A stretch of 50,144 bases of DNA from Patescibacteria group bacterium (GCA_038065675.1 JBBTQM010000016.1:1-50144), one strand, 5' to 3'. Positions 3,965-23,545 are shown, counted from the stretch's first letter. The notes: a model not told the origin generated them from the letters alone. Numbers and translations: made by a program.

Positions 3965-4336
3965 ATGGCTACAAAATCGACAACCAAAAAAGCTCCCGCG
4001 AAGAAAGCCGCGGCCAAGGCCGCGGAGGGGATACAACATCTGCGCATCCGTGTCCGCGCGTATGAAAATAAAGTGCTCGACCTTTCGGTTAAGCAAATTA
4101 TTGATACCGCTCTCCGCTATGACGCCAAAATTTTGGGGCCGATTCCGCTTCCGACCGAGATAAAAAAATATACGGTAAACCGCTCCTCGTTCATCTACAA
4201 AAACGCGCGCGAGCAGTTTGAGATGAGGATACACAAGCGCCTTATCGATATCGTGAACCCATCGGCGAAAGTGATTGAAGCTCTCACCAACCTATCCCTT
4301 CCTTCAGGGGTGGATATAGATGTGAAGATGATGTAA
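3965..4336 (+). CDS. rpsJ: 30S ribosomal protein S10 with Lys/Ala-rich N-terminal extension
   Basis: Core LRIRVRAYENKVLD...PIPLPTEIKKYTVNRS...HKRLIDIV is typical S10. About 20 extra N-terminal residues (MATKSTTKKAPAKKAAAKAAEG). Confidence 0.95.
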   Translation: MATKSTTKKAPAKKAAAKAAEGIQHLRIRVRAYENKVLDLSVKQIIDTALRYDAKILGPIPLPTEIKKYTVNRSSFIYKNAREQFEMRIHKRLIDIVNPSAKVIEALTNLSLPSGVDIDVKMM

Positions 4337-4343
4337 CAAAAAA

Positions 4344-4400
4344 ATCATTAATTTAAACAAAATCCCCGCTTTATGCGGGGCTTTTGTTTAAATTAATGAT
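4344..4400 (+). terminator. Long, near-perfect hairpin directly after rpsJ
   Basis: Outer arms ATCATTAATTTAAACAAAA (4344-4362) / TTTTGTTTAAATTAATGAT (4382-4400). Inner stem CCCCGC/GCGGGG, loop TTTAT, one mismatch. It sits where rpsJ normally runs straight into rplC. Confidence 0.65.
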
Positions 4401-4487
4401 TAAATTGACAAATATGTATTTTTATTATTAAATGCGGACAGAAAATCGACCTTTCGTCCAACTCGTACATCCAAGTCCAAGGGGGTT

Positions 4488-4676
4488 ATGATGAAGAAAA
4501 GTATTGCCGTTTTTCTCTTGGGGTTCGTTGCGGCCGTTTCCTTCGCCTTGATAGCTCACGATTTGAGCGGTCACGGAATGAAGGAGGAAACCAAGCACTG
4601 CGCTACGTTTAACATCGGTGAGGGGTACCTGCGCGTTTGCGTGGGAGAAGTCCAATACCTAAGGCCCCTCCAATAG
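4488..4676 (+). CDS. Small secreted/membrane-anchored hypothetical protein (62 aa)
   Basis: GGGGG Shine-Dalgarno-like run 4 nt upstream. N-terminal signal-like segment MMKKSIAVFLLGFVAAVSFALIA. No recognisable family. Confidence 0.5.
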   Translation: MMKKSIAVFLLGFVAAVSFALIAHDLSGHGMKEETKHCATFNIGEGYLRVCVGEVQYLRPLQ

Positions 4677-4709
4677 CGAAAGCCCCGTTTCTAACATTAA
4701 GGAGCGCAT

Positions 4710-4905
4710 ATGCCGAGAGTTCGGCTCGAGAAAATTCCCCAGGAAATTCAACAGCGATACAACATCGGCGAGGAAGTGGAGGCCGATGTCGGATTTGATG
4801 TCACGGCTGGGGGGAAGCTTCACCTTCCGAAACAAGAAAGGGAAAGAGGTGCATGTAGATGCAGTGGAGCTCTGCGGCACCCCTATCATGGTCCGCGACC
4901 TTTGA
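4710..4905 (+). pseudogene. Small AbrB/SpoVT-like protein gene with apparent frameshift in a G6 run
   Basis: Strong RBS (TAAGGAG, 5 nt, ATG). The N-terminus RVRLEKIPQEIQQRYNIGEEVEADV resembles AbrB-type swapped-hairpin domains. After the G6 run at 4809-4814 the annotated frame becomes Arg-rich junk and runs through the terminator. The other frame reads GGSFTFRNKKGKEVHVDAVELCGTPIMVRDL and stops at 4903-4905, 14 nt before the terminator. Confidence 0.4.
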
Positions 4906-4919
4906 ATGATTCCCGGTTG

Positions 4920-4943
4920 GCCCGCGCCTCGCGCGGGCTTTTT
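4920..4943 (+). terminator. Intrinsic terminator
   Basis: GCCCGCGC (4920-4927), loop CTC, GCGCGGGC (4931-4938), then TTTTT. Confidence 0.75.
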
Positions 4944-5053
4944 CTTTGACTTGTTTGCCACGCGTAATTGACAAATGGTGTTTGAAAATATAACCTAAGC
5001 AACGGACTTGATTCTTTGTCAATCGAGAAACCCTTAACCAAAAGGAGTACGCT

Positions 5054-6629
5054 ATGAGCCGTTTATTGAGGTCGTTGGGCGTTATTGCATTTATCTTTAT
5101 CGTCACCGCGTGTGGCGGCGGTGGCGGCGGGAATACGTCTCCCGCACCTGTCTCTGCCCCGCCGGCAACGTACAGTATTTCTGGCACTGCCGCTCCAGGC
5201 GCCACAATCGCCGCGAGCGGGTCGGCGACAGCAAGTGCGATCGCCGCGGCGCAGACGGGACATTCAGTTTGTCCGGTCTCGCTAACGGCGCCTACACCGT
5301 CACGCCGTCGCTCACGGGATATTCATTTACCCCGACGAGCATGGCGAAAACGGTGAATGGTGCAAATGTGACCGGGGTGAATTTCACCGCTACGGCAAAT
5401 CCCGTCGTCCCGCCGACTAAGTACACTATTTCCGGCAAGGTGAGCGGTGGGGCTGGCATAATCGTCACCTTAAGCCCCAGTGGTGCGACGGTGACGACTG
5501 GTACGGACGGGAGTTACGAGTTCTCTGTGGTAAACGGGGGCTATACCGTCACTGCTCCGGGCGCAACCCCAGTCTCTGTAACGGTGAATGGAGCAAATGA
5601 AACGGGTATAAACATCGCGACGCCCATGCCAATCACCACTTCGTTGCCAGCCGGTTATGTGGTTCAGGGCGGGCTGACCTGGATGCCGGTGACCTTCATT
5701 GTGCCGGTAACCTTCGGTTCGACTTTCTGGGCGGATGCTAATGCTTATTGCACCAATACCACCATCAATGGACAGACCGGTTGGCGCATGCCGACCAAAG
5801 ATGAGTTGTTGAGCCTAGCCAATTCCGGGGCGTTGAACGCGGTGAACGGCCAGTGGGTCTGGTACTACGTCTGGTCGTCTACGCCCTATCCAACGGGCGG
5901 TTACTACGTCGTTTACTTGGATCCCACCAGGATATTCAACGGCACCGTCGATGTGGGCAGGGACGCCAACTATGTGTCGTGTGTCCACCCCGGTATTGTC
6001 CCCGCCCCACTGGCATCAGCGCTACTGTTGGCAACGGGCAAGTCACCGTCAGTTGGAATGCAGTTACGGGAGCGACCTCTTACAACCTTTACAGGGCATC
6101 GATCTCCGGTATCACCAAGAGCAACTACAGTTCATTAACCGGTGGAGTAAAGGTTGCCGGAGTTACCTCTCCATACATCCAAACCAGCTTGGCCAATAGC
6201 ACGACCTACTATTTTGTGGTGACGGCGGTCAATGCCAACGGAGAGAGTAACGAATCGAATCAGGTCTCGGCAACACCGCAGGTTGCTCCGTTGCCAGCAG
6301 GTTATGTGATTCAGGGCGGCCTGATCTGGATGCCGGTAACGTTAAACTTCAACTGGGCGGATGCCAATGCCTATTGCACCAATACCACCATTAACGGCCG
6401 AGCTGGCTGGCGTCTACCGACGCTAACCGAAGCATATGCCTTTTCTGCATCGTTTTTTTCCATCGGGGGGTTTCGCAATTCGTTGTGGACGTCACCCTAC
6501 ATGCCCTACATCTGGACGTCGACACCCGCTAGTGTTGGGAGCCACTACTTCGCCGATATCGTCATCGGCGTTGGCGGCAGTTTCGATGCGCGCGACGTGA
6601 ACCAATTCGGAGTGACGTGTGTCCTTTAG
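5054..6629 (+). pseudogene. Multidomain surface lipoprotein (CarboxypepD_reg-like repeats, DUF1566, FN3, DUF1566) broken by two frameshifts
   Basis: Three overlapping ORFs (5054, 5110 and 5853 in the track) read as one protein. It starts with a lipobox signal (FIFIVTAC), then YSISGTAAPGATI.../ADGTFSLSGLANGAYTVTPSLTGYSF beta-sandwich repeats. Next come WADANAYCTNTTINGQTGWRMPTKDEL (DUF1566-like), PTGISATVGNGQVTVSWNAVTGATSYNLYRA...YYFVVTAVNANGES (FN3) and a second DUF1566-like domain. The frame changes near 5235-5250 and in a C-run region near 5985-6005. Confidence 0.75.
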
Positions 6630-6743
6630 AGCCTTGGTCTGTGGAATCTCTTCATTGAGCCTTTAGGTATCGATGGAATGGGTGCAGTAGTCTTCGGCCC
6701 TGCCGGATTCTAGCTCGCTTGATTGAGTTTGTAGTAATTAAGT

Positions 6744-6770
6744 GGCCATCGCGAAAGCGGTGGCCTTTTT
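6744..6770 (+). terminator. Intrinsic terminator
   Basis: GGCCATCGC, loop GAAA, GCGGTGGCC (one G-U), then TTTTT. Confidence 0.75.
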
Positions 6771-6772
6771 GT

Positions 6773-6801
6773 TTGACTTTGGATATTTTTTATGATATAA
6801 T
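6773..6801 (+). promoter_or_regulatory. Near-consensus sigma70 promoter with extended -10
   Basis: TTGACT (6773-6778), 17-nt spacer, TGaTATAAT (6793-6801). Confidence 0.7.
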
Positions 6802-6902
6802 TAAATAAGTTAATTCCTATTCGTATGGATAGGTCATTCCGAAAGGGATAAGAGGGAAGCTTCTAACCCTGAATTAGAAGCGTTCGTTGAAAGGATCAAG
6901 AT

Positions 6903-7220
6903 ATGTCCATCGTTTGGGAAGATTGGTCTCAAGTCGTGAATGGACCTTCCAAGTTCGACCTGATGGTGTCGTTGTTCGAATCTACGACACAGGCATTACA
7001 GCCGCGTCGAACCACGGAGTTCCAGGTGAAGCACAAGGACAAACCATCAACCATTCATCTGAAAGTTGCCGTTTCCCTTATACAGCGTGAAGATGGGTCA
7101 GGAGAGTCCTGGAACTTTGAAGGATACGCTCTTCCCTCGGGCAAGAGATTAAAAGGTTATTACTCTACCCGGACCAGAAAGGGCACCGTCAAATTCCACG
7201 ATAACGGACCGCTCGTATAA
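6903..7220 (+). CDS. Hypothetical protein (105 aa)
   Basis: Intact ORF between a consensus promoter and a terminator, with an AAAGGA RBS-like element 8 nt upstream. No motif I recognise. Confidence 0.6.
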   Translation: MSIVWEDWSQVVNGPSKFDLMVSLFESTTQALQPRRTTEFQVKHKDKPSTIHLKVAVSLIQREDGSGESWNFEGYALPSGKRLKGYYSTRTRKGTVKFHDNGPLV

Positions 7221-7232
7221 ATAAAAAAATAT

Positions 7233-7269
7233 AACCCGCCTGCAAAAAATCTGCCCCGGCGGGTTTTTT
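7233..7269 (+). terminator. Intrinsic terminator
   Basis: AACCCGCC (7233-7240) / GGCGGGTT (7258-7265), 17-nt loop, T-run to 7269. Confidence 0.65.
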
Positions 7270-7270
7270 G

Positions 7271-7298
7271 TTGCATTTTTTGTACCCCCGTGTATACT
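7271..7298 (+). promoter_or_regulatory. Candidate outward promoter re-driving rplC and downstream genes
   Basis: TTGCAT (7271-7276), 16-nt spacer, TATACT (7293-7298) preceded by TG. A terminator-like hairpin TCCGCAA/TTGCGGA plus T6 (7345-7377) lies in the leader and is a possible attenuator. Confidence 0.45.
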
Positions 7299-7378
7299 CG
7301 CTAAGTCAGATCTACGTCCCCGTAATGGGGGACCAATGGACCACTCCGCAAATAGGATGCTCCATTGCGGATTTTTTA

Positions 7379-7532
7379 GTAGAAAATAGCGAGGTATGCC
7401 GAGCATATTTTCTTAACCCCTCACTTGCATCGTAAGAGGGGGATAGTAAGTAAAATAAGTGAAGAAATAAATATTGTATAGCAAGTGAGGGGTAGCGATT
7501 TTTATAGTCGTTTTACTCCTTAAAAATCAGTC
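7379..7532. repeat. Compound-hairpin intergenic repeat, copy 1 (inverted relative to copies 2 and 3)
   Basis: Arms ACCCCTCACTTGC (7416-7428) / GCAAGTGAGGGGT (7481-7493) enclose 52 nt. The reverse complement of the right flank (GACTGATTTTTAAGGAGTAAAACGACTATAAAAATCGCTACCCC) aligns with the left flank of copy 2. Confidence 0.7.
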
Positions 7533-8156
7533 ATGAAATTTATCGTCGGAACAAAACAGAATATGACCCAATTTTTCGCCGAAGACGGGCGGGCGTTCGC
7601 CGGCACCGTGCTTAAGGTGGAGCCGATGGTCGTTGCACAGGTAAAAGGAAAAGAAAAAGACGGCTATTCGGCGGTTATGGTCGGTTTCGGCGGCGCTCAA
7701 AAAGTGGAAAGAGTTTCCAAGGCGGTGCGCGGGCATTTGAAAGAAATTGCTCCGACCAAGGGTCTTAAAGAATTCAGAGTTTCCGAGGAAGAAGCAAAGG
7801 CATTCGCGCGCGCGCAGTCGATTGACGTATCAATATTTAATCCGGGCGACATCGTTGAAGTTTCAGCCATAACCAAAGGCAAAGGTTTTCAGGGTGTGGT
7901 TAAGCGACATGGATTTGCCGGCGGCCCGAGAACTCACGGCCAGAAACACTCCGAACGCGAAGCCGGTTCTATCGGAGCTACATGGCCCCAGCGCGTTATA
8001 AAAAACAAGCGCATGCCCGGACGCATGGGCGGAGACCGCGTTACGATTAAAAACCTGCGCGTGTTGGGAGTTGATGCGGCCGCGAATCTTATTTTAATAT
8101 CGGGAGCCATTCCGGGCCGCCGCGGAACTTTCGTTGAAGTAAGGGGCAGGAATTAG
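7533..8156 (+). CDS. rplC: 50S ribosomal protein L3
   Basis: 207 aa. The KGKGFQGVVKRHGFAGGPRTHG motif and its operon position. Confidence 0.96.
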   Translation: MKFIVGTKQNMTQFFAEDGRAFAGTVLKVEPMVVAQVKGKEKDGYSAVMVGFGGAQKVERVSKAVRGHLKEIAPTKGLKEFRVSEEEAKAFARAQSIDVSIFNPGDIVEVSAITKGKGFQGVVKRHGFAGGPRTHGQKHSEREAGSIGATWPQRVIKNKRMPGRMGGDRVTIKNLRVLGVDAAANLILISGAIPGRRGTFVEVRGRN

Positions 8157-8181
8157 TTGGTAGGAATTAGGAATTAGAAAA

Positions 8182-8847
8182 ATGGAAACAAAAATTTACA
8201 ATCAGGAAGGAAAAGAATCCGGAGAAATTAATCTTCCGGAAAGTGTTTTCGGCGTGAAATGGAACGCGGACTTGATACATCAAGTTATCGTTTCAATGCA
8301 GTCCAACGTCCGCACCTCGACTGCCCACACCAAGGGGCGTTCGGATGTTCGTGGCGGAGGCAAGAAGCCATGGCAGCAGAAAGGAACCGGCCGAGCCCGC
8401 CACGGTTCGCGCAGAAGCCCGCTTTGGCGCGGCGGAGGCATTACTCACGGTCCGACCAGTGAGCGCAATTATGAAAAGAAAGTGAACAAAAAAATGGCGG
8501 CGAAAGCTCTCGCGGCGCTTCTTTCGGAAAAATTAAAGAGCGGGCGCGTTATTTTTGTCGACAGCATTTCGTTTTCTGCCGCGAAAACCAAAGAAGCGGC
8601 GAAAACATTAAGCGCCATTTCAAAAGTAAAAGGATTTGAAACGCTGTCCATGAAGAAAAGCGGGAACGTTTACTTTGTTTTGCCGAAAAAGGACGACAAA
8701 GCAGTCCGCGCTTTCAAGAATCTTCCTCAAGTTGAGACCGGGGAAGCGAGGAATTTAAACGCGCTTGATTTGGTTACGCACCGCTACATTGTCGTTGCGG
8801 AGCCGAAAGAATCCGTGGCGATTCTTGAAAAGAGAGTCACAAAATAA
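8182..8847 (+). CDS. rplD: 50S ribosomal protein L4
   Basis: 221 aa. RGGGKKPWQQKGTGRARHGSRRSPLWRGGG motif. Confidence 0.96.
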   Translation: METKIYNQEGKESGEINLPESVFGVKWNADLIHQVIVSMQSNVRTSTAHTKGRSDVRGGGKKPWQQKGTGRARHGSRRSPLWRGGGITHGPTSERNYEKKVNKKMAAKALAALLSEKLKSGRVIFVDSISFSAAKTKEAAKTLSAISKVKGFETLSMKKSGNVYFVLPKKDDKAVRAFKNLPQVETGEARNLNALDLVTHRYIVVAEPKESVAILEKRVTK

Positions 8848-8891
8848 AAACTTGTCCCGTTAGAGGCCGTGAACGCGTAGTTATAATCAAA

Positions 8892-9275
8892 ATGAAAAAC
8901 TTAAAAAATTTAAAAAAAATAAAATCTTCTGTAGCGGGGCGTTCGCGCATTGTCTCTAATGGGATGGCAACAAAATCTGCAAAAATAAATACAGTTCCGG
9001 AATCGCTCTCAGGCGTTTTGCTCCGCCCGCGCATTACGGAGAAAGCGACTATGTTGGGCGAGAAAAACGTCTACACCTTTGATGTTTCTCCGCGCGCCAA
9101 TAAAGACATGGTCGCCCGCGCCGTTAAAGCTGTTTACGGGATGACGCCGATTCGGGTTAATATTTCTCAGATTAAACCGAAGGCGATTTTCGTTCGCGGG
9201 AAGATGGGGACAAAAGGCGGCGGGAAGAAAGCCATGGTGTATTTAAAAAAAGGAGATAAGATAGAGTTTGTGTAA
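8892..9275 (+). CDS. rplW: 50S ribosomal protein L23 (start uncertain)
   Basis: Core LLRPRITEKATMLGEKNVYTFDV... is L23. The first 24 codons are low-complexity (MKNLKNLKKIK...). An alternative ATG at 8964 would give a typical 103-aa L23. Confidence 0.9.
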   Translation: MKNLKNLKKIKSSVAGRSRIVSNGMATKSAKINTVPESLSGVLLRPRITEKATMLGEKNVYTFDVSPRANKDMVARAVKAVYGMTPIRVNISQIKPKAIFVRGKMGTKGGGKKAMVYLKKGDKIEFV

Positions 9276-9311
9276 ATATAACCTACAACCAACGACAAAC
9301 AACCAACAAAA

Positions 9312-10166
9312 ATGAAATTTTACAAACCCACAACTCCATCGCGCCGCCACATGTCCACCGTTACCTTCAAGGGGGTGCTTACTTCGTCTGTCCCGCATAA
9401 GGCTTTGACCTACGGCAAAAAGCGCCATGTCGGACGAAACGCGGACGGCAGAATCACCGTTCGCCACAAGGGAGGAGGACACAAACGCGTTCATCGCGAT
9501 GTTGATTTTCTGTACGACAAAAAAAATATTCCGGCGCGCGTGGAAAGCGTTGAATACGACCCGAACCGCTCCGGTTTTATCGGGCTTGTTGTTTATCGCG
9601 ACGGCGAGAGGCGCTATATGCTTCTTCCGAAAACTGTTCGCCCGGGAGCGAATATCATGGTTTCCGAAACAGCCGACATAACGCCGGGCAACCGCCTCCC
9701 TCTTTTGAAAATTCCTGTCGGCACTTTTGTTTACAATGTTGAAATCAAGCCGCGAGGCGGAGCGAAGCTTGTCAGAAGCGCCGGTGTTTTTGCCGAAGTG
9801 GTCGCGCAAGACGGCGGCTATACCAGTTTGAAGCTTCCTTCTACCGAAGTTCGCAAAGTTCCCGGTTCATCGTGGGCGTCGGTTGGCGAGGTTTCAAATG
9901 ACGAGCATAAGCTTCGTTCAATAGGCAAAGCGGGCCGCTCGCGCTGGCTTGGAATCCGCCCGACTGTCCGCGGCACCGCCATGAATCCGGTTGACCACCC
10001 TCACGGAGGAGGTGAAGGCAGGCAGGGCAGGGGTCTTCGCAGGGCGAAATCTCTATGGGGCAAGCCTACGGGCAAGGGACAAAAAACCAGAACTCCAAAG
10101 AAATACTCAAATATTTTTATTGTTTCCAGGAGAAAAGTTGGGAAGAAAAGAGAAACGAAGCAGTAA
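9312..10166 (+). CDS. rplB: 50S ribosomal protein L2
   Basis: 284 aa. Motifs GGGHKR and MNPVDHPHGGGEGR. Basic C-terminal tail. Confidence 0.97.
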   Translation: MKFYKPTTPSRRHMSTVTFKGVLTSSVPHKALTYGKKRHVGRNADGRITVRHKGGGHKRVHRDVDFLYDKKNIPARVESVEYDPNRSGFIGLVVYRDGERRYMLLPKTVRPGANIMVSETADITPGNRLPLLKIPVGTFVYNVEIKPRGGAKLVRSAGVFAEVVAQDGGYTSLKLPSTEVRKVPGSSWASVGEVSNDEHKLRSIGKAGRSRWLGIRPTVRGTAMNPVDHPHGGGEGRQGRGLRRAKSLWGKPTGKGQKTRTPKKYSNIFIVSRRKVGKKRETKQ

Positions 10167-10180
10167 GTCAGCAAAAAAAG

Positions 10181-10206
10181 AAGGCCGCCCGAGGGGGCGG
10201 CCTTTT
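10181..10206 (+). terminator. Hairpin after rplB (repeated at 10957-10977)
   Basis: AAGGCCGCCC, loop GAGG, GGGCGGCCTT, then TT. Confidence 0.6.
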
Positions 10207-10220
10207 CGATTGAGTTCACA

Positions 10221-10712
10221 TCACAGACAATTTTCATGTCTGGAAATCTGAAACAGAAGATCGATCGGGTTTTTCGTGTCCATGCGAGCCAGAGGATTTT
10301 CGACGATCATCTGGCGTACCAACTTCCCGTCTTTGTCGAACCACTGCTTGACTGGAGCTGGCCCACTACAGCGAATTGTTTTTCCCACGAGTTCGGCTAG
10401 CTCGCGCACAGTGGTGTTATCGCATGGTCCCCTCATCCAACCCTCTGCTTTCGTGGGGATGTTGCCCGGGATAATAAGAAGGGGTAAAAATATTTCCATA
10501 GTCACGTGCGCATGACATCGTTGAGGAATCAAGCTGACCCCTAATCCTGGGAAAGGAGCGGTACTTGCGAGCATACTATTCTTGTCGTGGACGAGGTGGA
10601 CCTCATCGATGGCAATGGAAGCCTCGATCTGTACCACCGATTCCTTGGTTATTTCAGGGGTGCAAGCATACAAGGCGAAAAAAACAACAACCCACACAGG
10701 GTAGCGAAACAT
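10221..10712 (-). CDS. Hypothetical lipoprotein (163 aa), antisense to the r-protein operon
   Basis: N-terminus MFRYPVWVVVFFALYAC (signal plus lipobox-like LYAC). AAGGAG RBS 6-7 nt upstream and its own promoter. No recognisable domain. Confidence 0.65.
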   Translation of the reverse strand: MFRYPVWVVVFFALYACTPEITKESVVQIEASIAIDEVHLVHDKNSMLASTAPFPGLGVSLIPQRCHAHVTMEIFLPLLIIPGNIPTKAEGWMRGPCDNTTVRELAELVGKTIRCSGPAPVKQWFDKDGKLVRQMIVENPLARMDTKNPIDLLFQISRHENCL

Positions 10713-10753
10713 TGGGGGACTCCTTATTTTGTGTAATTAAGAACAGACGATTG

Positions 10754-10783
10754 AATATAACAACTTAAATAAGTATTTGTCAA
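10754..10783 (-). promoter_or_regulatory. Sigma70-like promoter for the minus-strand lipoprotein gene
   Basis: On the minus strand: TTGACA (10783-10778), 17/18-nt spacer, TTATAT/TATATT (10760-10754). Confidence 0.55.
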
Positions 10784-10807
10784 TAGAAAACAATTATCGC
10801 GGATGTA

Positions 10808-10861
10808 TTTATCGTTTCCAGACGTAAGGTAGGAAAGAAAAGGAAAGAAACGAAGCAGTAA
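10808..10861 (+). repeat. Diverged duplicate of the rplB 3' end (last 17 codons plus stop)
   Basis: Encodes FIVSRRKVGKKRKETKQ*. Native rplB 10116-10166 encodes FIVSRRKVGKKRETKQ*. The nucleotide differences are synonymous (att/atc, agg/aga, aga/cgt, aaa/aag, gtt/gta, ggg/gga, aga/agg) plus one extra Lys codon. Confidence 0.85.
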
Positions 10862-10893
10862 AAAATCGGCCTGAATGGTCGATTTTTTACTGC
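10855..10893 (+). terminator. 14-bp hairpin over the stop of the duplicated rplB end
   Basis: GCAGTAAAAAATCG (10855-10868) / CGATTTTTTACTGC (10880-10893), 11-nt loop. Confidence 0.5.
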
Positions 10894-10901
10894 GAAGTCA
10901 A

Positions 10902-10911
10902 CCCCCCCCCC
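10902..10911. repeat. C10 homopolymer tract
   Basis: Ten consecutive C residues in non-coding DNA, about 65 nt upstream of the promoter at 10976. Confidence 0.9.
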
Positions 10912-10975
10912 ACAAAGGACCGCCCTTCGTTCGACAGCAAATAAGAAAAAAGTAGGCCGCCCAAGGGGGCGGTTT

Positions 10976-11004
10976 TTGACTTTCAGAAACCTGCATATTA
11001 GTAT
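10976..11004 (+). promoter_or_regulatory. Sigma70-like promoter for the 124-aa membrane protein gene
   Basis: TTGACT (10976-10981), 17-nt spacer, TAGTAT (10999-11004). It is preceded by hairpin CCGCCC/GGGCGG plus T5 (10957-10977). Confidence 0.6.
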
Positions 11005-11031
11005 GACACCGGGTTATTTTAGGAGGTACCC

Positions 11032-11406
11032 ATGTTCATAGAATATTTGTACTTAAACATTATCCCTGTAGCTTTTCTGATATTTGCGTACAGATTCTCC
11101 TCCGGCCCAATGAAAGAAATGGCCGAGTGGAAAAACGATGAAATGGCCACCTGGACCATCTCATTCTTCACATTTTGGGCGTGGTTCGTCTTTTCCTGCA
11201 CCCTGATAGTTGTCCTGAATCGCTTATTTGAGGCGGAATGGAACTGGGTGTTTGTCGGATTACTGGGTGCTTTAGTGTCGTGGGTATCAACAATGATGAT
11301 GCACATTGATCCTGCCATGTGGCGGTTTGTCAGAGCAGCGACAACTTTCCCCGAACCACCCGGCTATTTTATGGATAATGACGGGGTCTGGAAAAGGTTA
11401 AGGTGA
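11032..11406 (+). CDS. Hypothetical integral membrane protein (124 aa)
   Basis: AGGAGG RBS 6 nt upstream. Three to four hydrophobic helices (IIPVAFLIFAY, WTISFFTFWAWFVFSCTLIVVL, VFVGLLGALVSWVSTMMM). Confidence 0.7.
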   Translation: MFIEYLYLNIIPVAFLIFAYRFSSGPMKEMAEWKNDEMATWTISFFTFWAWFVFSCTLIVVLNRLFEAEWNWVFVGLLGALVSWVSTMMMHIDPAMWRFVRAATTFPEPPGYFMDNDGVWKRLR

Positions 11407-11425
11407 ACACGAGTTGAACTGTGAA

Positions 11426-11447
11426 AAAGCCCGCTTTTGCGGGCTTT
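11426..11447 (+). terminator. Intrinsic terminator
   Basis: AAAGCCCGC, loop TTTT, GCGGGCTTT. Confidence 0.7.
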
Positions 11448-11454
11448 CCCTTAT

Positions 11455-11483
11455 TTGACAAGCTAATTCAGTTTGTATAGTAT
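11455..11483 (+). promoter_or_regulatory. Outward sigma70-like promoter re-driving rpsS and downstream genes
   Basis: TTGACA (11455-11460), 17-nt spacer, TAGTAT (11478-11483). Same architecture as the promoter at 10976. Confidence 0.6.
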
Positions 11484-11585
11484 GATACCCAAGCTCGCTG
11501 GAGCTATTTTATTTTAATGACCGGAGAGTGGCGCCCACTCTAGGGTTGCAAGCCTCTCCCTCGTTAAAATCCAGCAACAAGCAAT

Positions 11586-14839: not shown

Positions 14840-15071
14840 AAAATTAACGAGCGAATAATATGAGCGACTATAATTTACTTAACCCCCCACCAAATTTACT
14901 AAAAAATATGAAACTGAAATTAAAAATAGGATTAAGCGAATATACCAAAGGCGCCACTGGCCCGGATAGGGCCGGGCTATTCGCCCGCGTGGCGCCGAGT
15001 ATTATTACTGGTAAATTTGGTGGGGGGTCATTATTTTCTAAAATCTCGCTTGCGCTCGCTTAAGAAAATAT
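14840..15071. repeat. Compound-hairpin intergenic repeat, copy 3
   Basis: Arms ACCCCCCACCAAATTTAC (14882-14899) / GTAAATTTGGTGGGGGGT (15010-15027) enclose 110 nt with an inner hairpin GGCGCCAC...GTGGCGCC. The outer flanks are homologous to copy 2. Confidence 0.75.
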
Positions 15072-15617
15072 ATGAAAACAAAATCGGTACAAGAAAAAAA
15101 TAAGGAAGCCCTCGTCCATTTGAAAGGCAAGTTTCACTATAAAAACGTGATGCAGGCGCCGCGTTTGGTTAAGGTTGCCGTTTCCTCAGGCACCGGCTCT
15201 CAAATAAAGAAAGACAAAAAGAGAAACGAATTCATCGCGGAGCGATTGTCCAAAATCACCGGCCAAAAAGCTTCTCCTCGCGGAGCCAAAAAAGCCATCG
15301 CAACATTTAAGACGCGCCAGAACGATGTTATCGGAGCCACGGTTACTCTACGCGGCAAACGCATGTTTCTTTTCTTGGATAAGTTTTTGAATGTAGCTCT
15401 TCCGCGCACGAAAGACTTCAAGGGAATCGCCCGCACTGCTGTTGATGAAATGGGTAATTTGACTATAGGAATAAAAGAGCACACGATTTTCCCGGAAACC
15501 GCCGATGAAGATTTGAAGGATGTTTTCGGTTTGGCTATCACTATCGTTACGACAGCGAAAGGCAAAGATGAAGCCACGGCGTTTCTGGAATATATAGGGG
15601 TTCCGTTTAAGAAATAA
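15072..15617 (+). CDS. rplE: 50S ribosomal protein L5
   Basis: 181 aa, L5 core, operon position. Confidence 0.95.
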   Translation: MKTKSVQEKNKEALVHLKGKFHYKNVMQAPRLVKVAVSSGTGSQIKKDKKRNEFIAERLSKITGQKASPRGAKKAIATFKTRQNDVIGATVTLRGKRMFLFLDKFLNVALPRTKDFKGIARTAVDEMGNLTIGIKEHTIFPETADEDLKDVFGLAITIVTTAKGKDEATAFLEYIGVPFKK

Positions 15618-15680
15618 AGCCAAAGCGAGGGGTTTTTCGAGGTTTGACACTATTTTTTGTAGTGGTAGTCTTTTACATAC

Positions 15681-16706
15681 ATGGATAAAAAAACTCTTAT
15701 ACAGCAGATAGAAAAATTAAGGGGTTCTCGTGTTATTACTTATGTAACTAGTGACCGGCCTGGGCCTATAAACGCCCGTGTCGCTATGGATATTATTCCG
15801 CTTGTAAGCGCGCAGCTTCGCAAAATAGGAAAGGTGCCGAAAATAGATTTGTTTCTATATAGCGCAGGGGGAGATACCATGGTTCCGTGGCGGCTTGTAT
15901 CTATGATTAGAGAATATTGTAATACGTTCTCCGTACTTATTCCTTACAAAGCCCACAGTTCGGCAACTATGATTGCTCTCGGTGCCGATGAAGTCGTAAT
16001 GAGTGATTTGTCAGAAATTTCACCAATTGACCCCTCCACTGCTAATATTTTTAATCCATCCGACCAAACCAATCCACAAAATAAAATACCAATTTCTGTT
16101 GAAGATGTTATAGCATATTTTGACTTGGCAAAAAATAAATTTGGTATAAAAAATGACGAAGACTTGACCAAGATATTCAATAAATTTGTGGAGTCAAACC
16201 CCCAAATTCACCCTCTCGCTCTCGGTAATGTGAATCGTACACATAATCTTATTCGCCTTTTGGCGAAACGGCTTTTGAAGAGCCATCAAAAGCCAATACA
16301 CGATGACGAAATAAAGAAAATCGTGGAATATTTTACTGAAACACTATACTCGCACCAGTATTTTGTCGGCAGAAAAGAAGCAAAAGAGGATCTTGGTCTA
16401 AAATTTGTGATTGATGCTGACAAGAATCTCTCAGATCTTATGACAGACCTTTATGAAAAGTATGCCGAAGAGATAGGATTAGGTAAGCAGTGGAATCCAG
16501 AAGGCGAAATTGGAATGAATAATGCTTCGGTGCAGAAAGAATACAGAATTGCTTATGTAGGAAGTTCAGACGTTGAAAATTACTACAGTATCTCAATGGA
16601 GTTTCGCAGACAGCAGGTTAATATGGTTCAACAAACTTCTCAGGGTCCAATCCAAATTCCACAAGAGCAGGTTGGTTTTAGAATAATTGAGCAGGGGTGG
16701 AAGTAA
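15681..16706 (+). CDS. ClpP-fold serine protease of the SDH ('serine dehydrogenase proteinase', S49-like) type with an unassigned helical C-terminal half
   Basis: The N-terminal third (ITYVTSDR, DLFLYSAGGDTMVPWRLVSMIREY, IPYKAHSSATMIALGADEVVM, ISPIDPS) matches my recollection of the SDH/ClpP-class peptidase signature. The remaining 200 aa or so are unassigned. Visibly AT-richer than its neighbours. Confidence 0.7.
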   Translation: MDKKTLIQQIEKLRGSRVITYVTSDRPGPINARVAMDIIPLVSAQLRKIGKVPKIDLFLYSAGGDTMVPWRLVSMIREYCNTFSVLIPYKAHSSATMIALGADEVVMSDLSEISPIDPSTANIFNPSDQTNPQNKIPISVEDVIAYFDLAKNKFGIKNDEDLTKIFNKFVESNPQIHPLALGNVNRTHNLIRLLAKRLLKSHQKPIHDDEIKKIVEYFTETLYSHQYFVGRKEAKEDLGLKFVIDADKNLSDLMTDLYEKYAEEIGLGKQWNPEGEIGMNNASVQKEYRIAYVGSSDVENYYSISMEFRRQQVNMVQQTSQGPIQIPQEQVGFRIIEQGWK

Positions 16707-16710
16707 AATT

Positions 16711-17301
16711 ATGGCTAATTATATTAAAATATTTTTAGGATTTTTTAATGACAACCTTGGTGTTGTTACTCTTATAGCTGGAGCTTTTGCTCTTTTTCTT
16801 TATAAAAGACAACAAAGAGATTATAAAAAGGATGCTGCGAGTTTAATTTTGCAAGAAATTAGATATGCAGAACAACAAATTAGAACTGCTAGACAAAATG
16901 GTGACAGTTATTCGTTGGCTTCAAAATTATTACCTACAAATAGTTGGAATGATAAAATTCATCTTTTTGTAAAAGACTTGGAAGAGAATCAAATTGATAT
17001 GATTAATACTTTTTATGCAAAAGCAAAATACATTGATATTCTTATTTTGAAACGCTCGGATCAATTAACAGGACCCCATACACAGCAAAACCAGTTCTCT
17101 CCTGCATCAATTCCCGTGCCCCAAAACCCAGGACAATTGAATCAGTTTGTACAAGTTACCTTGCCTATTCCCCCTTCCCCAGAAAGCGTCACAATTGGGC
17201 TTTTAAAACAAGTTTCGTCTAGTGTTGAGTTTATTTACAATACCCCAGTTGTAGAAAAATTAAGAAAGATATCAAATAAAAAATGGTGGCACCTTTTTTA
17301 G
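16711..17301 (+). CDS. Membrane-anchored hypothetical protein (196 aa), partner of the protease
   Basis: Start taken at the ATG at 16711 (MANYIKIFLGFFNDNLGVVTLIAGAFALFLY), 4 nt after the protease stop, with GGGGTGGAAG upstream. One N-terminal TM helix, a helical domain and a Q/P-rich segment. Confidence 0.65.
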   Translation: MANYIKIFLGFFNDNLGVVTLIAGAFALFLYKRQQRDYKKDAASLILQEIRYAEQQIRTARQNGDSYSLASKLLPTNSWNDKIHLFVKDLEENQIDMINTFYAKAKYIDILILKRSDQLTGPHTQQNQFSPASIPVPQNPGQLNQFVQVTLPIPPSPESVTIGLLKQVSSSVEFIYNTPVVEKLRKISNKKWWHLF

Positions 17302-17339
17302 GTTAGATTAAAAATCTGATTATTCCAACGAATTTTAGT

Positions 17340-17368
17340 TTGACACCCCCGCTCCCCTCATATATACT
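17340..17368 (+). promoter_or_regulatory. Outward sigma70-like promoter re-driving rpsN and downstream genes
   Basis: TTGACA (17340-17345), 17-nt spacer, TATACT (17363-17368). Confidence 0.6.
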
Positions 17369-17574
17369 CCCCTTAGCTCTTAAGGAGCTATTTTCATTTC
17401 CCCGCTTAATCCGCCCGCCTCCTTTTCCGCTTAAATTAAGCCGAAAAGAATTCGGGCGAGATATTGGCGGAATGAGTTTATAGTTATTAGTTTTGAGTTC
17501 TTAGTTTGGGGGCAGGGGGTACCCGTTCCAGGATTTTAACTAAAAACTAACTGCTAAAAACTAGAAACTATCCA

Positions 17575-17760
17575 ATGGCAAAAACTTCAACAAAAGTAAG
17601 GTCATCCAGGCCGCCTAAATTCAAAAGCCGTGTGGTACGGCGTTGTTTTAAGTGCGGCCGCAAGCGCGGATACATGCGCGACTTTGACCTATGCCGCATT
17701 TGTTTCCGCGAGCTTGCCAACGAAGGAATGATTCCGGGCATTAAGAAGTCATCATGGTAA
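17575..17760 (+). CDS. rpsN: 30S ribosomal protein S14, zinc-binding type Z
   Basis: 61 aa. [23 protein letters not shown] has two CxxC pairs. Confidence 0.95.
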
Positions 17761-17855
17761 TAACCAACGACCAACGGCTGACGACCAACAACAAAATGCA
17801 AGCAAAACAAGAAATAGTTGGAATTGTCGTAAGTTGTAGGTTGTAAGTTAAATTT

Positions 17856-18242
17856 ATGGACCCCATCTCCGACATGCTAATAAGATTGAAGAACGCAAGC
17901 GCCGTGCGCCGCGCTTCCGTTTCCTTGCCGTACTCAAAGCTGAAGAACGCCATCGGCGAGGTTCTTCTTAAGGAGGGATACATAGCTTCTGTCGTGAAGC
18001 GCCCGCGCGAGAAAGGGGCGGTGCTTGAGATTGAGCTTGTTTACAAAGACAAAAAGCCGAAAATCAAAGGAGTGGAGCGTATTTCCAAGCCGTCGCGCCG
18101 CGTTTATTTAGGCGTCAGCGAAATAAAAATGGTAAAAGGCGGCTACGGAACACTTGTTCTCTCCACCCCGAAAGGAATTTTGACTGGCAAAGAAGCGCGC
18201 AAGGAGCTCGTCGGCGGCGAAGCCTTATTCAACATCTGGTAA
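17856..18242 (+). CDS. rpsH: 30S ribosomal protein S8
   Basis: 128 aa. MDPISDMLIRLKNA start. Confidence 0.96.
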   Translation: MDPISDMLIRLKNASAVRRASVSLPYSKLKNAIGEVLLKEGYIASVVKRPREKGAVLEIELVYKDKKPKIKGVERISKPSRRVYLGVSEIKMVKGGYGTLVLSTPKGILTGKEARKELVGGEALFNIW

Positions 18243-18246
18243 AACC

Positions 18247-19929: not shown

Positions 19930-19944
19930 TCCAAAAAATCAGCC

Positions 19945-20385: not shown

Positions 20386-20387
20386 AC

Positions 20388-21659
20388 ATGGGAAATTTTT
20401 TCAACAAACTTACGTTTGTCTTCTCCGACAAAAATTTGCGCGGGAAGATTATTTTCGCCGTTGCCGCGCTCGTTGTCTTCCGCCTTCTCGCCACGATTCC
20501 GATTCCGGGGATTGACACATTTCGGCTTGAGCAATTTTTTTCCAACAATCAATTTTTGGGGCTTTTGAATATTTTCTCCGGAGGCGGGCTTTCCAATCTT
20601 TCAATAGTCATGTTGGGTGTCGGCCCGTACATTACCTCTTCCATTATCATGCAGCTTCTCACCATCATGATTCCGTCACTTAAGGCGCTTTATCATGAAG
20701 AAGGAGAATTAGGCAGACGAAAATTCACGCAATATTCGCGGTTGCTCACTGTCCCTCTGGCCATACTTCAGGGATTAGGACTTCTTATTCTTCTTGAGAG
20801 GCAGGGTATAATCGAACATCTTTCAATGTTTAGCCGAATTTTGAATCTTGTCGTCATTACCGGCGGTTCCATTCTTCTTATGTGGATAGGAGAGCTTGTT
20901 TCGGAATTTGGAATCGGGAACGGCGTTTCCCTCCTTATTTTCGCCGGCATCGTGGCGGTCATTCCGTCGCAGGTTGGACAGCTTTTGTTCACCTTTGACG
21001 TTTCGCAAATTCCCCTGTATCTGGCGTTCATCGCCGTCGCGCTTTTTATTATCGCCGGCGTGGTGTTCATAACCGAGGCCGAACGGCCGCTTCCCGTTAC
21101 TTACGCCAAGAGGGTGCGCGGCATGAAAGTTTACGGCGGCCTCGCCACATATCTTCCTTTGCGCTTGAATCAAGCCGGAGTTATCCCGATTATTTTCGCC
21201 CTCTCAATTCTTCTTTTCCCGCAGATGATAGGGACGTTCCTTGGCTCTTCGGGAAATTCCATTTTGCAGAGTATCGGTATGATACTCAATTCAATAATGC
21301 AGAATACCTGGGTTTACTCAATCCTTTATTTCGTTATGGTGTTTCTTTTCACTTACTTTTATACGGCAGTCACCTTTGACCCGCATTCAATCGCGGAGAA
21401 CTTGCAGAAAAACGGCGCCTTTATTCCAGGCGTTCGTCCGGGGAATTCCACTTCCGAATATATAGGAAGAGTTCTCAATCGCATTACGCTTTTCGGCGCG
21501 CTTTTTCTGGGCATCATTGCTGTCTTGCCGCTTATAATGCAGGGAGCAACAGGCATCACGGCGTTTGCCATCGGCGGCACGGCGCTTCTCATCGTTGTTT
21601 CCGTCGTTCTTGACCTCATAAAGAAAATCGACGCGCAGATTTCGATGAGGGAGTATTAA
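20388..21659 (+). CDS. secY: Preprotein translocase subunit SecY
   Basis: 423 aa, 10 TM segments, conserved position after rplO. Confidence 0.96.
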   Translation: MGNFFNKLTFVFSDKNLRGKIIFAVAALVVFRLLATIPIPGIDTFRLEQFFSNNQFLGLLNIFSGGGLSNLSIVMLGVGPYITSSIIMQLLTIMIPSLKALYHEEGELGRRKFTQYSRLLTVPLAILQGLGLLILLERQGIIEHLSMFSRILNLVVITGGSILLMWIGELVSEFGIGNGVSLLIFAGIVAVIPSQVGQLLFTFDVSQIPLYLAFIAVALFIIAGVVFITEAERPLPVTYAKRVRGMKVYGGLATYLPLRLNQAGVIPIIFALSILLFPQMIGTFLGSSGNSILQSIGMILNSIMQNTWVYSILYFVMVFLFTYFYTAVTFDPHSIAENLQKNGAFIPGVRPGNSTSEYIGRVLNRITLFGALFLGIIAVLPLIMQGATGITAFAIGGTALLIVVSVVLDLIKKIDAQISMREY

Positions 21660-21660
21660 A

Positions 21661-21747
21661 AACCCACAACTCACAACAAACAACTAACAACAAGGAAGAC
21701 AATCAAATCCCTTTACATTGTAGGTTGTAGGTTGTAAGTTGTAGGTT
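21661..21747 (+). other. Imperfect long hairpin spacer with an A/C-only arm and a G/T-rich arm
   Basis: AACCCACAACTCACAACAAACAACTAACAAC (21661-21691) pairs with TTGTAGGTTGTAGGTTGTAAGTTGTAGGTT (21717-21746). By hand, about 24 of 31 positions pair. Confidence 0.55.
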
Positions 21748-21748
21748 A

Positions 21749-22348
21749 ATGACCCCTCAAACTTTCATCTTCATCGGGCGTTCCGGGTCCGGCAAAGGCA
21801 CGCAGGTTAAACTTTTGGAAAAATACATTACGGAAAACGACCCTGTTAAAAGGTCGATTTTTTATCTGGAAACCGGGGAGCGATTCAGGAATTTTATTGC
21901 CGGGGATTCATACGCGAGCTTTCTTTCAAAAGAGATAAGCAAACGCGGCGAGCTTCAGCCGGAATTTCTGGCCGTTTATATGTGGGCGGAAGAATTAATC
22001 AATAAATTAAAACACGACGAACATTTGATAATAGACGGTTCCCCGCGGCGTTTGCGCGAAGCGATGGTGCTTGATACCGCTTTATCGTTTTTTAAGCGTC
22101 AGAATCCGATAGTTATAGATTTGAATGTTTCTCCGGAATGGTCGCGCGAAAGGTTGATTGCCCGCGGGCGCGCCGATGATGTTCAGAAAGAAGACATAGA
22201 AAAACGCTTGAAATGGTTTAATTTGGAAGTCAGGCCGGCGATTGATTGGTTTGGCAATCAACCCGGCTACAAAATTTTTCATATTAACGGCGAACAGACA
22301 ATCGAACAAGTCCACGAAGACATAATCTCAGCAATTTTCAATTCTTAA
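21749..22348 (+). CDS. adk: Adenylate kinase
   Basis: 199 aa. P-loop GRSGSGKGTQ. Position between secY and map. Confidence 0.9.
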   Translation: MTPQTFIFIGRSGSGKGTQVKLLEKYITENDPVKRSIFYLETGERFRNFIAGDSYASFLSKEISKRGELQPEFLAVYMWAEELINKLKHDEHLIIDGSPRRLREAMVLDTALSFFKRQNPIVIDLNVSPEWSRERLIARGRADDVQKEDIEKRLKWFNLEVRPAIDWFGNQPGYKIFHINGEQTIEQVHEDIISAIFNS

Positions 22349-22372
22349 TTTTCAATTTTTATTGAATTTTCA

Positions 22373-22741
22373 ATGTTACCAAAAAGCAGTTACAATCTGG
22401 AGGATAGAACAGCTAAATTAGGGGAAAATGTTATTAAATTTTGCAAAACCATAAAAGAAGATACTATAACCAAGCCGATTATAAGCCAACTAATACGTTC
22501 ATCCACAAGTATTGGCGCGAATTATATGGAGGCAAACGGGGCGAGTTCAAAAAAAGATTTCAGGAATAAAATATTTATATGTAAAAAAGAAGCGCAAGAA
22601 ACTAAACATTGGCTGAGGATGATAACAATATGTATTCCCGAACAGAAGGAGAAAATAGAAACTTTTTGGAAAGAATCTCAGGAACTAACGATGATTTTCC
22701 AAAAAATAACAAGCTCCCTGAAAAATACCGTTGAAAATTAA
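22373..22741 (+). CDS. Four-helix-bundle protein (23S rRNA intervening-sequence protein / Avd-like family)
   Basis: 122 aa. The signature ISQLIRSSTSIGANYMEANGASSKKDFRNKIFICKKEAQETKHWLRM matches my recollection of the TIGR02436-type family. Confidence 0.8.
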   Translation: MLPKSSYNLEDRTAKLGENVIKFCKTIKEDTITKPIISQLIRSSTSIGANYMEANGASSKKDFRNKIFICKKEAQETKHWLRMITICIPEQKEKIETFWKESQELTMIFQKITSSLKNTVEN

Positions 22742-22783
22742 TCATTGGTTATTTATTAAAAATTGAAAATTTAAAATTAAATC

Positions 22784-23545
22784 GTGGTAACGATTAAAAC
22801 AAAACACGAACTTGAGATATTGCGTGAAGGGGGAAAACGGCTGGCTAAAGTTTTGAAAGCCGCCGCGGGCGCGGTCCGCCCCGGGGTAACCACCCTTTCG
22901 CTTGACCGTCTTGCCGAAAATCTCATTCGCGAAATGGGAGACGAGCCGGCTTTTTTGCGCTATCAACCGTGGGGGGCGCAATATCCTTACCCCGCCAGCC
23001 TTTGCGTGTCTGTTAATAATGAAGTGGTACACGGAATTCCCGGGACGAAAATTTTAACTGAAGGAGATATTGTTTCCCTTGATTTGGGAATTCGCCATGG
23101 CGGCCTTATTACCGATGCGGCGATAACCGTTCCCGTCGGCAAGATAGATGCACGCGCCGAAAAACTCATTGCCGCGACAAAGAAGTCTCTTGAAGAAGGA
23201 ATAAAAGCGGCACGGCCGGGCGGATTCGTCGGCGATATCGGCAAAGCCATAGAGCGTCAGGCAATATCCTCAAAATTTAATGTTGTGAAAATACTTGGTG
23301 GGCACGGCGTCGGATACGAAGTTCACGAAGAGCCGTACATTCCTAATTACTCCATGAAAGGTAACGGACCAAAACTAAAGTCCGGTATGGTTATAGCAAT
23401 TGAGCCTATGTTAAATGAAGGAACAGACGACGTTTATCTGGATAAAGACGGATACACCTGGAAAACCTCCGACAATAAAAGAAGCGCACATTTTGAACAT
23501 ACTCTTATAATCACCGATAGCGGGGCGGATATCATAACCGAATAA
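22784..23545 (+). CDS. map: Type I methionine aminopeptidase (GTG start)
   Basis: 253 aa. Pita-bread fold motifs (VVHGIP, DIVSLDLG, ITDAAITV, GHGVGYEVHEEP, IEPM, FEHT). Confidence 0.95.
   Translation: MVTIKTKHELEILREGGKRLAKVLKAAAGAVRPGVTTLSLDRLAENLIREMGDEPAFLRYQPWGAQYPYPASLCVSVNNEVVHGIPGTKILTEGDIVSLDLGIRHGGLITDAAITVPVGKIDARAEKLIAATKKSLEEGIKAARPGGFVGDIGKAIERQAISSKFNVVKILGGHGVGYEVHEEPYIPNYSMKGNGPKLKSGMVIAIEPMLNEGTDDVYLDKDGYTWKTSDNKRSAHFEHTLIITDSGADIITE

Follow-up and report, generated by a model that had tools for sequence, protein, structure and literature searches.

We analysed a stretch of 50,144 nucleotides (nt) of DNA from a Patescibacteria group bacterium (GCA_038065675.1 JBBTQM010000016.1:1-50144), hereafter the window, in which the ribosomal-protein genes of the str-S10-spc cluster are separated at several places by non-ribosomal DNA. 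A listing of open reading frames (ORFs) combined with Pfam, in which each gene was matched, gave the order rpsJ-rplC-rplD-rplW-rplB-rpsS-rplV-rpsC-rplP-rpmC-rpsQ-rplN-rplX-rplE-rpsN-rpsH-rplF-rplR-rpsE-rplO-secY-adk-map, the canonical one, as a first-pass annotation of this DNA had claimed. All of these genes lie on the plus strand, as do fusA (85-2127) and tuf (2674-3876) ahead of them. After rpsJ (S10; 3965-4336, PF00338, E = 7e-31) come the rplC-rplD-rplW-rplB block (7533-10166, with rplC starting at 7533, rplD at 8182, rplW at 8892 and rplB at 9312-10166), the block from rpsS (11586) to rplE (15072-15617), which also holds a 67-aa ORF between rplX and rplE, the block from rpsN (17575) through rplO (19945) and secY (20388) to adk (21749-22348), and map, encoding methionine aminopeptidase (22784-23545, PF00557). 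The gene rpmD (uL30) is missing from the cluster by Pfam, as is usual for bacteria of the candidate phyla radiation (CPR). The tight contiguity of the canonical S10-spc cluster, whose spacers measure tens of nt and whose breaks are confined to operon borders such as rpsQ/rplN, is broken in the window by four non-ribosomal stretches, which we call inserts 1 to 4: 4337-7532 between rpsJ and rplC (3196 nt), 10167-11585 between rplB and rpsS (1419 nt), 15618-17574 between rplE and rpsN (1957 nt) and 22349-22783 between adk and map (435 nt). These lengths agree with the earlier estimates of about 3.2, 1.4, 1.9 and 0.4 kb. Two splits that had not been listed before, fusA/tuf (2128-2673) and map/d5 (23546-27032), bring the total to six.

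By placement of its S3 protein the host is a Paceibacteria/Parcubacteria-type CPR bacterium; the closest species-level relative is 84% identical in S3 and the others 62-74%. Groundwater from the Hainich well H43 (0.1-um filter fraction) yielded contigs that encode an exact copy of its L16 protein. Replicate samples provided two other contigs, which agree with the window at 99.96% over 20.4 kb and at 99.98% over 16.8 kb, and since the three independent assemblies agree, the architecture is not an assembly chimera. As relatives we used 80 species-representative loci centred on rpsC and reaching 10 kb to either side, in which the window proteins were placed by tblastn, and as a control 67 non-CPR loci taken from a metagenome scan made with L2.

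To delimit the inserts we compared the junctions with those of relatives. The first-pass annotation had predicted a promoter facing the downstream ribosomal genes near the right-hand end of each of the first three inserts. Our scan recovered two of these, TTGACA-17-TAGTAT before rpsS (11455-11483, 10/12) and TTGACA-17-TATACT before rpsN (17340-17368, 11/12); the third, TTGCAT-16-TATACT before rplC (7271-7298), fell below the scan threshold, and a similar site, TTGCAT-16-TATAAT, precedes the common rplC leader in L007. Each predicted promoter is followed by a structured leader, and the window leaders fold better than shuffled sequences (z -3.0 to -3.65): before rplC the promoter and leader occupy 7271-7532 (structured part 7299-7385, z = -3.65), before rpsS 11455-11585 (z = -3.05) and before rpsN 17340-17574 (z = -3.5). 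In L004, the closest relative, the rplE/rpsN spacer is 305 nt long and aligns with the last ~270 nt of insert 3, including TTGACA-17-TATACT, a hairpin TAGCTC..GAGCTA with a T-run, and the leader. Since this empty junction aligns with the remainder, the real insertion 3 spans about 15618-17305 and consists of exactly two cargo genes. The rpsJ/rplC spacer of L007 (471 nt) likewise holds none of the window's cargo and has in common with the window the rplC promoter TTGCAT-16-TATAMT and the leader elements AGATCTA-GTCCCCG and GGGGACCAATGGAC...TCCATTGCGG-T-run. The last 100-270 nt of inserts 1-3 is thus, as judged from these alignments and from the clade-wide promoters described next, ancestral backbone and not cargo. 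Insert 4 is absent from L004 altogether, where adk and map overlap. For inserts 1 and 2 the empty sites rest on more distant species, as the nearest relative in the metagenome scan made with L2 was no more than 71% identical.

The promoters before rpsS, rpsN and tuf recur throughout the relatives. In the 250 nt ahead of the gene, a promoter scoring at least 10 was found for rpsS in 59% of loci, for tuf in 57% and for rpsN in 38%, and for any other gene in at most 10%. Its presence is independent of gap size: it is kept in spacers of 48-120 nt and in spacers of up to 8.5 kb. Within the whole 50 kb of the window only eight sites score at least 10/12; tuf, rpsS, rpsN and the transfer-messenger RNA (tmRNA) gene ssrA each have one of these in front. 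A hairpin followed by a T-run lies 6-8 nt past the -10 element of rpsS in 51 of 68 loci (shuffle mean 19, maximum 31) and of rpsN in 24 of 40 (mean 13, maximum 22). In the window these hairpins are at 11492-11505 (rpsS, AGCTC/GAGCT) and 17374-17390 (rpsN), and the fusA/tuf spacer holds the tuf promoter TTGACA-16-TATTAT (2524-2551, plus strand), then a 5' hairpin and a T-run. The stems are gene-specific (AGCTC/GAGCT for rpsS, ACGC/GCGT for tuf). Searches of Rfam at gathering and E-value thresholds assigned the spacers to none of its leader or riboswitch families and gave only chance-level matches to terminator-like hairpins. The module of promoter, hairpin and T-run might stabilise the 5' end or act as a promoter-proximal attenuator.

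We next asked which junctions of the cluster are expanded in the relatives, counting a junction as expanded when its gap exceeded 300 nt and using as denominator the loci in which that junction was measured. Expansion was concentrated at fusA/tuf (27/31), rplB/rpsS (37/58) and rplE/rpsN (30/49). It was less frequent at rpsJ/rplC (11/47), secY/adk (11/40) and adk/map (5/32), and rare at tuf/rpsJ (4/44), rplX/rplE (3/72), rplO/secY (3/45) and rplW/rplB (1/54). The remaining 14 junctions were never expanded; the classical boundary between S10 and spc, rpsQ/rplN, gave 0/73. This heterogeneity is extreme (chi-square 541, df 22, p about 1e-100). In the non-CPR control, expansion was seen in 0/62 loci at rplB/rpsS and 0/27 at rplE/rpsN (medians -2 and 43 nt), while 13 CPR-like metagenome loci gave 4/10 and 3/4 for the same two junctions. 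The same junction pattern is repeated in metagenome-assembled genomes (MAGs) of many separate studies. Among the 21 relatives that span rpsJ through map, three (L013, L028 and L036) are compact throughout, and compared with these 21 the window genome carries the largest load, 8.05 kb over four junctions.

What fills these gaps differs from species to species. The cargo of inserts 1-4 had homologs in 0/80 related species loci by tblastn and was found in conspecific contigs only, so that the same inserts at the same junctions across a deep clade, the outcome that the first-pass annotation had named as pointing to ancient fixed genes, were not seen. A blastn comparison of the window with all loci gave no segment of exceptional identity that would point to recent recombination, and no DNA match in any insert. 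Clustered by similarity, the 198 ORFs in the relatives' gaps form 175 groups, and 164 of these are singletons; about 0.74-0.80 of the gap DNA is coding, and 70% of the ORFs point in the same direction as the ribosomal genes. Searches of Pfam and PHROGs with the 142 gap ORFs that reach 90 aa returned kinases, peptidoglycan-binding, TPR and pilin-like proteins and a single reverse transcriptase; the 25 top-ranking families of each search included neither an integrase nor a transposase. Most of the accessory genes encode secreted or membrane proteins or small unknown proteins; in the window they also include an SDH-like protease module and a four-helix-bundle gene. Where a cargo family is shared at rplB/rpsS, the cargo proteins are only 36-60% identical between genomes whose S3 proteins are 97-99% identical. 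Homologs of d3, d4 and d5, which follow map in the window, occupy the rplB/rpsS gap in other species. With the empty junctions, the singleton ORFs and the junction statistics, the earlier suggestion of an integration hotspot is supported among the junctions of this cluster.

Taken together, these results make it probable that the str-S10-spc cluster in Paceibacteria-type CPR bacteria is a chain of autonomous promoter-led units with insertion-tolerant spacers, and not one superoperon. The units would be tuf-rpsJ, rplC-rplB, rpsS-rplE and rpsN-secY(-adk-map), each opening with a near-consensus sigma-70 promoter and carrying a short hairpin and U-run close to where transcription would begin. With every downstream block under a promoter of its own, an insertion between one block's end and the promoter of the next would be non-polar on the essential genes and would survive; insertions at other positions of the cluster would be purged by selection, so that a few spacers would be the sole tolerant positions. 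Such spacers would gain, diverge and lose accessory genes fast. The DNA likely arrives by uptake and then recombines, either illegitimately or anchored in homology. A conserved promoter before the downstream gene marks precisely the three hottest junctions, which makes tolerance the simplest explanation. The promoters would account for this tolerance, and they were not brought in by the insertions. We infer the route of arrival, the firing of the promoters, and tolerance rather than targeting.

Several points weigh against this interpretation. Promoter and terminator activities are predicted, and the 24 promoter-like sites in the region are at chance level (23.6 expected); because the raw count is at chance, the case for the promoters rests on a few high-scoring sites and their conservation. 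The rpsJ/rplC junction is less well explained, as a promoter scoring at least 10 is present there in just 8% of relatives. At secY/adk and adk/map the inserts, insert 4 included, have no detectable promoter of their own or downstream, and must therefore be co-transcribed. Duplications of a gene tail or head inside the gap, the recombination scars that we looked for, are rare, with 2 of 97 expanded junctions (insert 2 of the window and one in L015) against 1 in the controls. The relatives are MAGs with unreliable taxon labels, and hotspot strength was compared among the junctions of this cluster.

The first-pass annotation had read the inserts as self-contained mobile cassettes, each carrying at its 3' end an outward promoter that restores expression of the downstream ribosomal genes. 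The promoters do sit at the right-hand end of inserts 1-3, and several cargo genes have their own promoter-terminator pair: c1e, c2a and c2b do, in the c3a/c3b pair the signals are weak, and c4 has none, so that the claim of self-sufficient cargo genes holds in part. However, the right-hand 100-270 nt is kept in L004 and L007, which lack the cargo, the promoter-hairpin modules of rpsS, rpsN and tuf are found clade-wide even in 48-120-nt spacers, and insert 4 contains no promoter whatsoever; we regard this account as very unlikely. Site-specific integration, in which a recombinase or homing endonuclease targets the junction sequences, would fit the very sharp junction specificity, the inverted repeats of insert 4, the direct duplication of the rplB tail and terminator in insert 2, and the one reverse transcriptase among the relatives' gap ORFs. 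Yet domain searches found no integrase, recombinase, transposase or homing endonuclease domain in inserts 1-4, nor did one appear among the top 25 families per search for the 142 gap ORFs. The cargo is heterogeneous and without common ends, flank duplications are not general, and the sole recombinase of the window (42677-44380) lies 19 kb off, beside the tmRNA gene. We accordingly give targeted integration very little credence. That the inserts are ancient, vertically inherited lineage genes, or an artefact of assembly or binning, is extremely improbable: although the insert 2 genes and most of insert 1 are host-like in composition, and the 67-aa ORF at rplX/rplE and d5 after map are common to relatives, the cargo of inserts 1-4 is confined to conspecific contigs, c2a is without a homolog in 5.8 billion proteins, the three assemblies are near-identical, and the pattern occurs in MAGs from many studies and is missing from non-CPR loci.

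The alternative that we take most seriously is cassette exchange by homologous recombination, with the conserved ribosomal genes as universal homology arms, so that the junctions would be hot through their flanks and not through tolerance alone. The divergence of shared rplB/rpsS cargo between genomes with almost identical S3, the occurrence of families d3, d4 and d5 at differing junctions in different genomes, and the low identity of adk to that of L004 (51%, against 84% for secY and 76% for map) all speak for it, and the rplB-tail duplication is compatible with one-sided homology. Against it, the 14 junctions that were never expanded are equally well flanked, so flanks alone cannot give the specificity; no part of the window stands out by its DNA identity to a relative, and the protease gene of insert 3 occurs elsewhere in unrelated contexts. 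We consider it possible but on the unlikely side. A wider proposal, about which we are more doubtful, is that a whole class of CPR bacteria re-partitioned this cluster, the most conserved one in prokaryotes, into promoter-plus-5'-hairpin modules at non-classical positions before tuf, rplC, rpsS and rpsN, with the spacers serving as preferred landing pads for new surface, defence-like and orphan genes and with cassettes swapped between species via recombination anchored in ribosomal genes. If true, the ribosomal-protein cluster would be a highly expressed, universally 'addressable' platform for gene exchange in organisms with very few classical mobile elements.

The arrangement that we favour, promoter-led units with tolerant spacers, has parallels in other systems. 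Oliveira, Touchon, Cury and Rocha reportedly described, in 2017, chromosomal hotspots of horizontal gene transfer that are flanked by core genes and have high turnover, many of them without recognisable mobile-element genes. As in such hotspots, one core-flanked interval here holds non-homologous accessory genes in each genome and empty states are present; the flanks, in contrast, are essential ribosomal-protein genes, and intensity was compared within the cluster. In archaea, cyanobacteria and plastids rps10 lies apart from the rpl3 cluster, and rpsN (S14) has been replaced in situ by transfer. The rpsJ/rplC junction and the rpsN position are thus known weak points of the cluster, but those cases are fixed rearrangements or replacements and not variable accessory content. 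The small, mostly single-gene and unrelated units at one chromosomal position also recall integron arrays. Unlike these, the region encodes no IntI or tyrosine recombinase detectable by domain searches (attC sites were not specifically searched), and several units have their own promoter and terminator and lie in either orientation; the hairpins after the cargo genes have G+C-rich stems and T-runs and are terminator-like.

The closest likeness is to 'invasion-separation' between translation-cluster operons, described in Gammaproteobacteria and Bacilli (2019, PMC6735719; Brandis 2021, PMC8046335), in which insertion was followed in some lineages by full separation. There too a few unrelated genes lie between transcription units and no dedicated mobile element is needed. 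In those phyla, however, the events are at rpoBC/str and str/S10 and are rare over long timescales, whereas in the clade of the window the breaks are inside the classical S10 and spc operons (rplB/rpsS and rplE/rpsN), affect more than half of the species, and hold different cargo each time. The rRNA genes of CPR bacteria carry long insertions, which are cut out at the RNA level (Brown et al. 2015; Tsurumaki et al. 2022, PMC9297842). These concern the same radiation and core translation loci, and the absence of uL30 is also confirmed in the window, but here whole genes lie between protein-coding genes. Insert 4 resembles the intervening sequences of 23S rRNA in encoding a PF05635/TIGR02436 protein inside inverted repeats, and differs from them in lying between adk and map in an mRNA operon and not within a 23S rRNA gene, where the flanking stem is processed by RNase III. 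Our search of the literature found no description of insertions in CPR ribosomal-protein operons. The organisation proposed here, in which ancestral units with their own promoters alternate with permissive spacers, would follow the logic of invasion-separation, but at non-classical positions and much more often.

The S10-spc cluster is the textbook case of a gene order frozen by selection, and it is the backbone of CPR phylogeny and of marker sets for binning. The loci described here offer a natural experiment, which would suggest that operon integrity is constrained by polarity on essential genes rather than by co-regulation as such. They also point to conserved promoters and 5' leaders in organisms without an experimental study of gene regulation, and define places in which accessory genes of CPR bacteria (surface proteins, the widespread SDH-like protease module) can be found and compared. 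A practical warning is that ribosomal-protein contigs in MAGs of CPR bacteria carry DNA of foreign composition, and that such DNA can interfere with binning and with marker extraction based on synteny.

We then characterized the cargo of each insert. Hairpins that could end the upstream blocks were found after rpsJ and rplB, and the scan gave no terminator-like site after rplE, all as had been noted before. The one after rpsJ (4343-4401) is bidirectional and terminator-like, with 27-nt arms that are 96% complementary. The cargo proper of insert 1 follows it (4402-7271, plus strand; delimited by ORFs, Pfam and the promoter/terminator scan), beginning with two small secreted ORFs (4488-4676 and 4710-4949). 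Next comes a lipoprotein gene (5054-6629) with domains CarboxypepD_reg, Lcl_C, fn3 and Lcl_C, which runs through three frames owing to two 1-nt frameshifts near 5250 and 6005, one of them in the C-rich stretch CCCCGCCCC. Since the frameshifts are identical in the three assemblies, this is a decaying cargo gene. The insert closes with a stand-alone unit consisting of a terminator (6744-6765), a predicted promoter (6773-6801, 11/12 with TG), the ORF c1e (6903-7220) and a second terminator (7242-7271). The 105-aa c1e product is a member of an unannotated family with 622 representative clusters. Just 5' of the rplC start, a 33-nt segment GATTTTTATAGTCGTTTTACTCCTTAAAAATCA (7497-7529) is identical to one before rplX in L004 (2640-2672), and its 13-nt core TTTTTATAGTCGT recurs ahead of rpsN in L004; the segment looks like a portable module of the 5' untranslated region.

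The cargo proper of insert 2 (10206-11447, by ORFs, promoter/terminator scan and repeats) uses both strands. On the minus strand c2a (10221-10712), an ORFan lipoprotein gene that matched nothing but itself among 5.8 billion proteins, has its own predicted promoter (10783-10754, 11/12), and the bidirectional terminator after rplB (10181-10204; 10 pairs, 8 of them G-C) would serve both rplB on the plus strand and c2a on the minus strand. On the plus strand c2b (11032-11406), a small membrane protein ORF, lies between a predicted promoter (10976-11004) and terminator (11426-11447). A second copy of the final 25 nt of rplB (10837-10861) and one of the rplB terminator (10946-10977) lie about 700 nt further downstream (repeats D9 and D14), so that the two sets flank c2a, and a further hairpin lies at 10855-10893. 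The duplicated rplB 3' end around c2a appears to be a scar of homology-anchored or illegitimate recombination. Composition, which had been proposed as a check on foreign origin, separated the inserts: by G+C content at third codon positions (GC3) insert 2 is host-like and insert 1 lies near the top of the host range, while inserts 3 and 4 are foreign-like (0.35, 0.23 and 0.33 for their three genes against 0.40-0.64, about 0.52, for host genes).

Insert 3 (cargo proper 15618-17305, plus strand, low GC) consists of c3a (15681-16706, GC3 0.35), a gene for an SDH-type serine protease of the Clp fold found by Pfam, and c3b (16687-17301, GC3 0.23), encoding its membrane partner. The protease matches PF01972 with 51.2 bits (cut-off 31.3) over the N-terminal 140 residues only, and NCBIfam NF047768 with 60.5 bits, below the cut-off of 250; by these scores it is a related domain and not the SDH equivalog. 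It has 1888 homologs, of which the best 120 clusters are 73-81% identical and nearly all 341 aa long; among these 120 few clusters carry a taxon name, and those are mostly Patescibacteria. For comparison, the ribosomal proteins of the window's nearest relatives are 62-74% identical, and the protease family is unusually uniform in CPR bacteria. Homologs elsewhere (L164-L170) adjoin genes for Fic, UvrD/PD-(D/E)XK, type III restriction-modification, GmrSD or RadC, and a small downstream partner is always present and differs by context, the partner in the window being 34% identical to just one of them. Protease and partner may form an undescribed two-gene defence or conflict module. PADLOC gave zero defence-system matches for any cargo protein of inserts 1-4. 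Nothing pointed to a phage vector for the protease: viral contigs and phage genomes yielded no close relative, only hypothetical proteins of 24-26% identity.

Insert 4 (22337-22781, plus strand) carries c4 (22373-22741), which encodes a four-helix-bundle '23S rRNA intervening sequence protein' (PF05635, 56.3 bits, cut-off 33.8; TIGR02436, 75.1 bits, cut-off 24), and the scan detected neither a promoter nor a terminator for it. The gene is enclosed by 39-nt inverted repeats (22337-22375 and 22743-22781, 79% complementary), which close a long stem round the whole ORF in both minimum free energy and centroid folds; the fold energy is no better than that of shuffled sequences (z = -0.4), the arms being AT-rich and of low complexity. 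A homolog of c4 is found in L087 about 2.6 kb upstream of tuf. On the other side of this junction adk (21749-22348), placed between two variable junctions and markedly less similar to its L004 counterpart than its neighbours are, has possibly been replaced.

Outside the four inserts, the fusA/tuf spacer also holds an 85-aa membrane ORF on the minus strand (2198-2455). The 67-aa ORF between rplX and rplE (14860-15063) was found among the relatives in L004 only, at 56% identity, and three other species have inserts of more than 2 kb at this junction. At rpsN/rpsH (17755-17860, z = -2.9) and secY/adk (21655-21752, z = -4.35), AC-rich tracts ACAACCAACGACAA pair with complementary tracts rich in GT, GTAGGTTGTAGGTTGTAAGTT, to give long hairpins; such tracts also occur at 9285-9312 and constitute a repeated intergenic element. 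Downstream of map, where infA-rpmJ-rpsM-rpsK-rpsD-rpoA-rplQ do not follow, the split at 23546-27032 contains four non-ribosomal ORFs on the plus strand (23664-26956), one with a Peptidase_S74 chaperone domain. It is followed by d5 (27033-29792, plus strand), the gene for a 919-aa VirD4/TraD-like ATPase that adjoins map in nine relatives (gap 22-142 nt). Further on, the tmRNA gene ssrA (44315-44689, minus strand), which adjoins smpB, shares its 3' end with a gene for a large serine recombinase (42677-44380) that overlaps it. The roughly 10 kb ahead of the recombinase encode mostly unknown proteins, a trypsin-like peptidase and DUF5677, and 34051-44689 probably represents an element that inserted at ssrA. 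A tRNA-Ile gene with anticodon UAU lies beyond it at 47309-47383.

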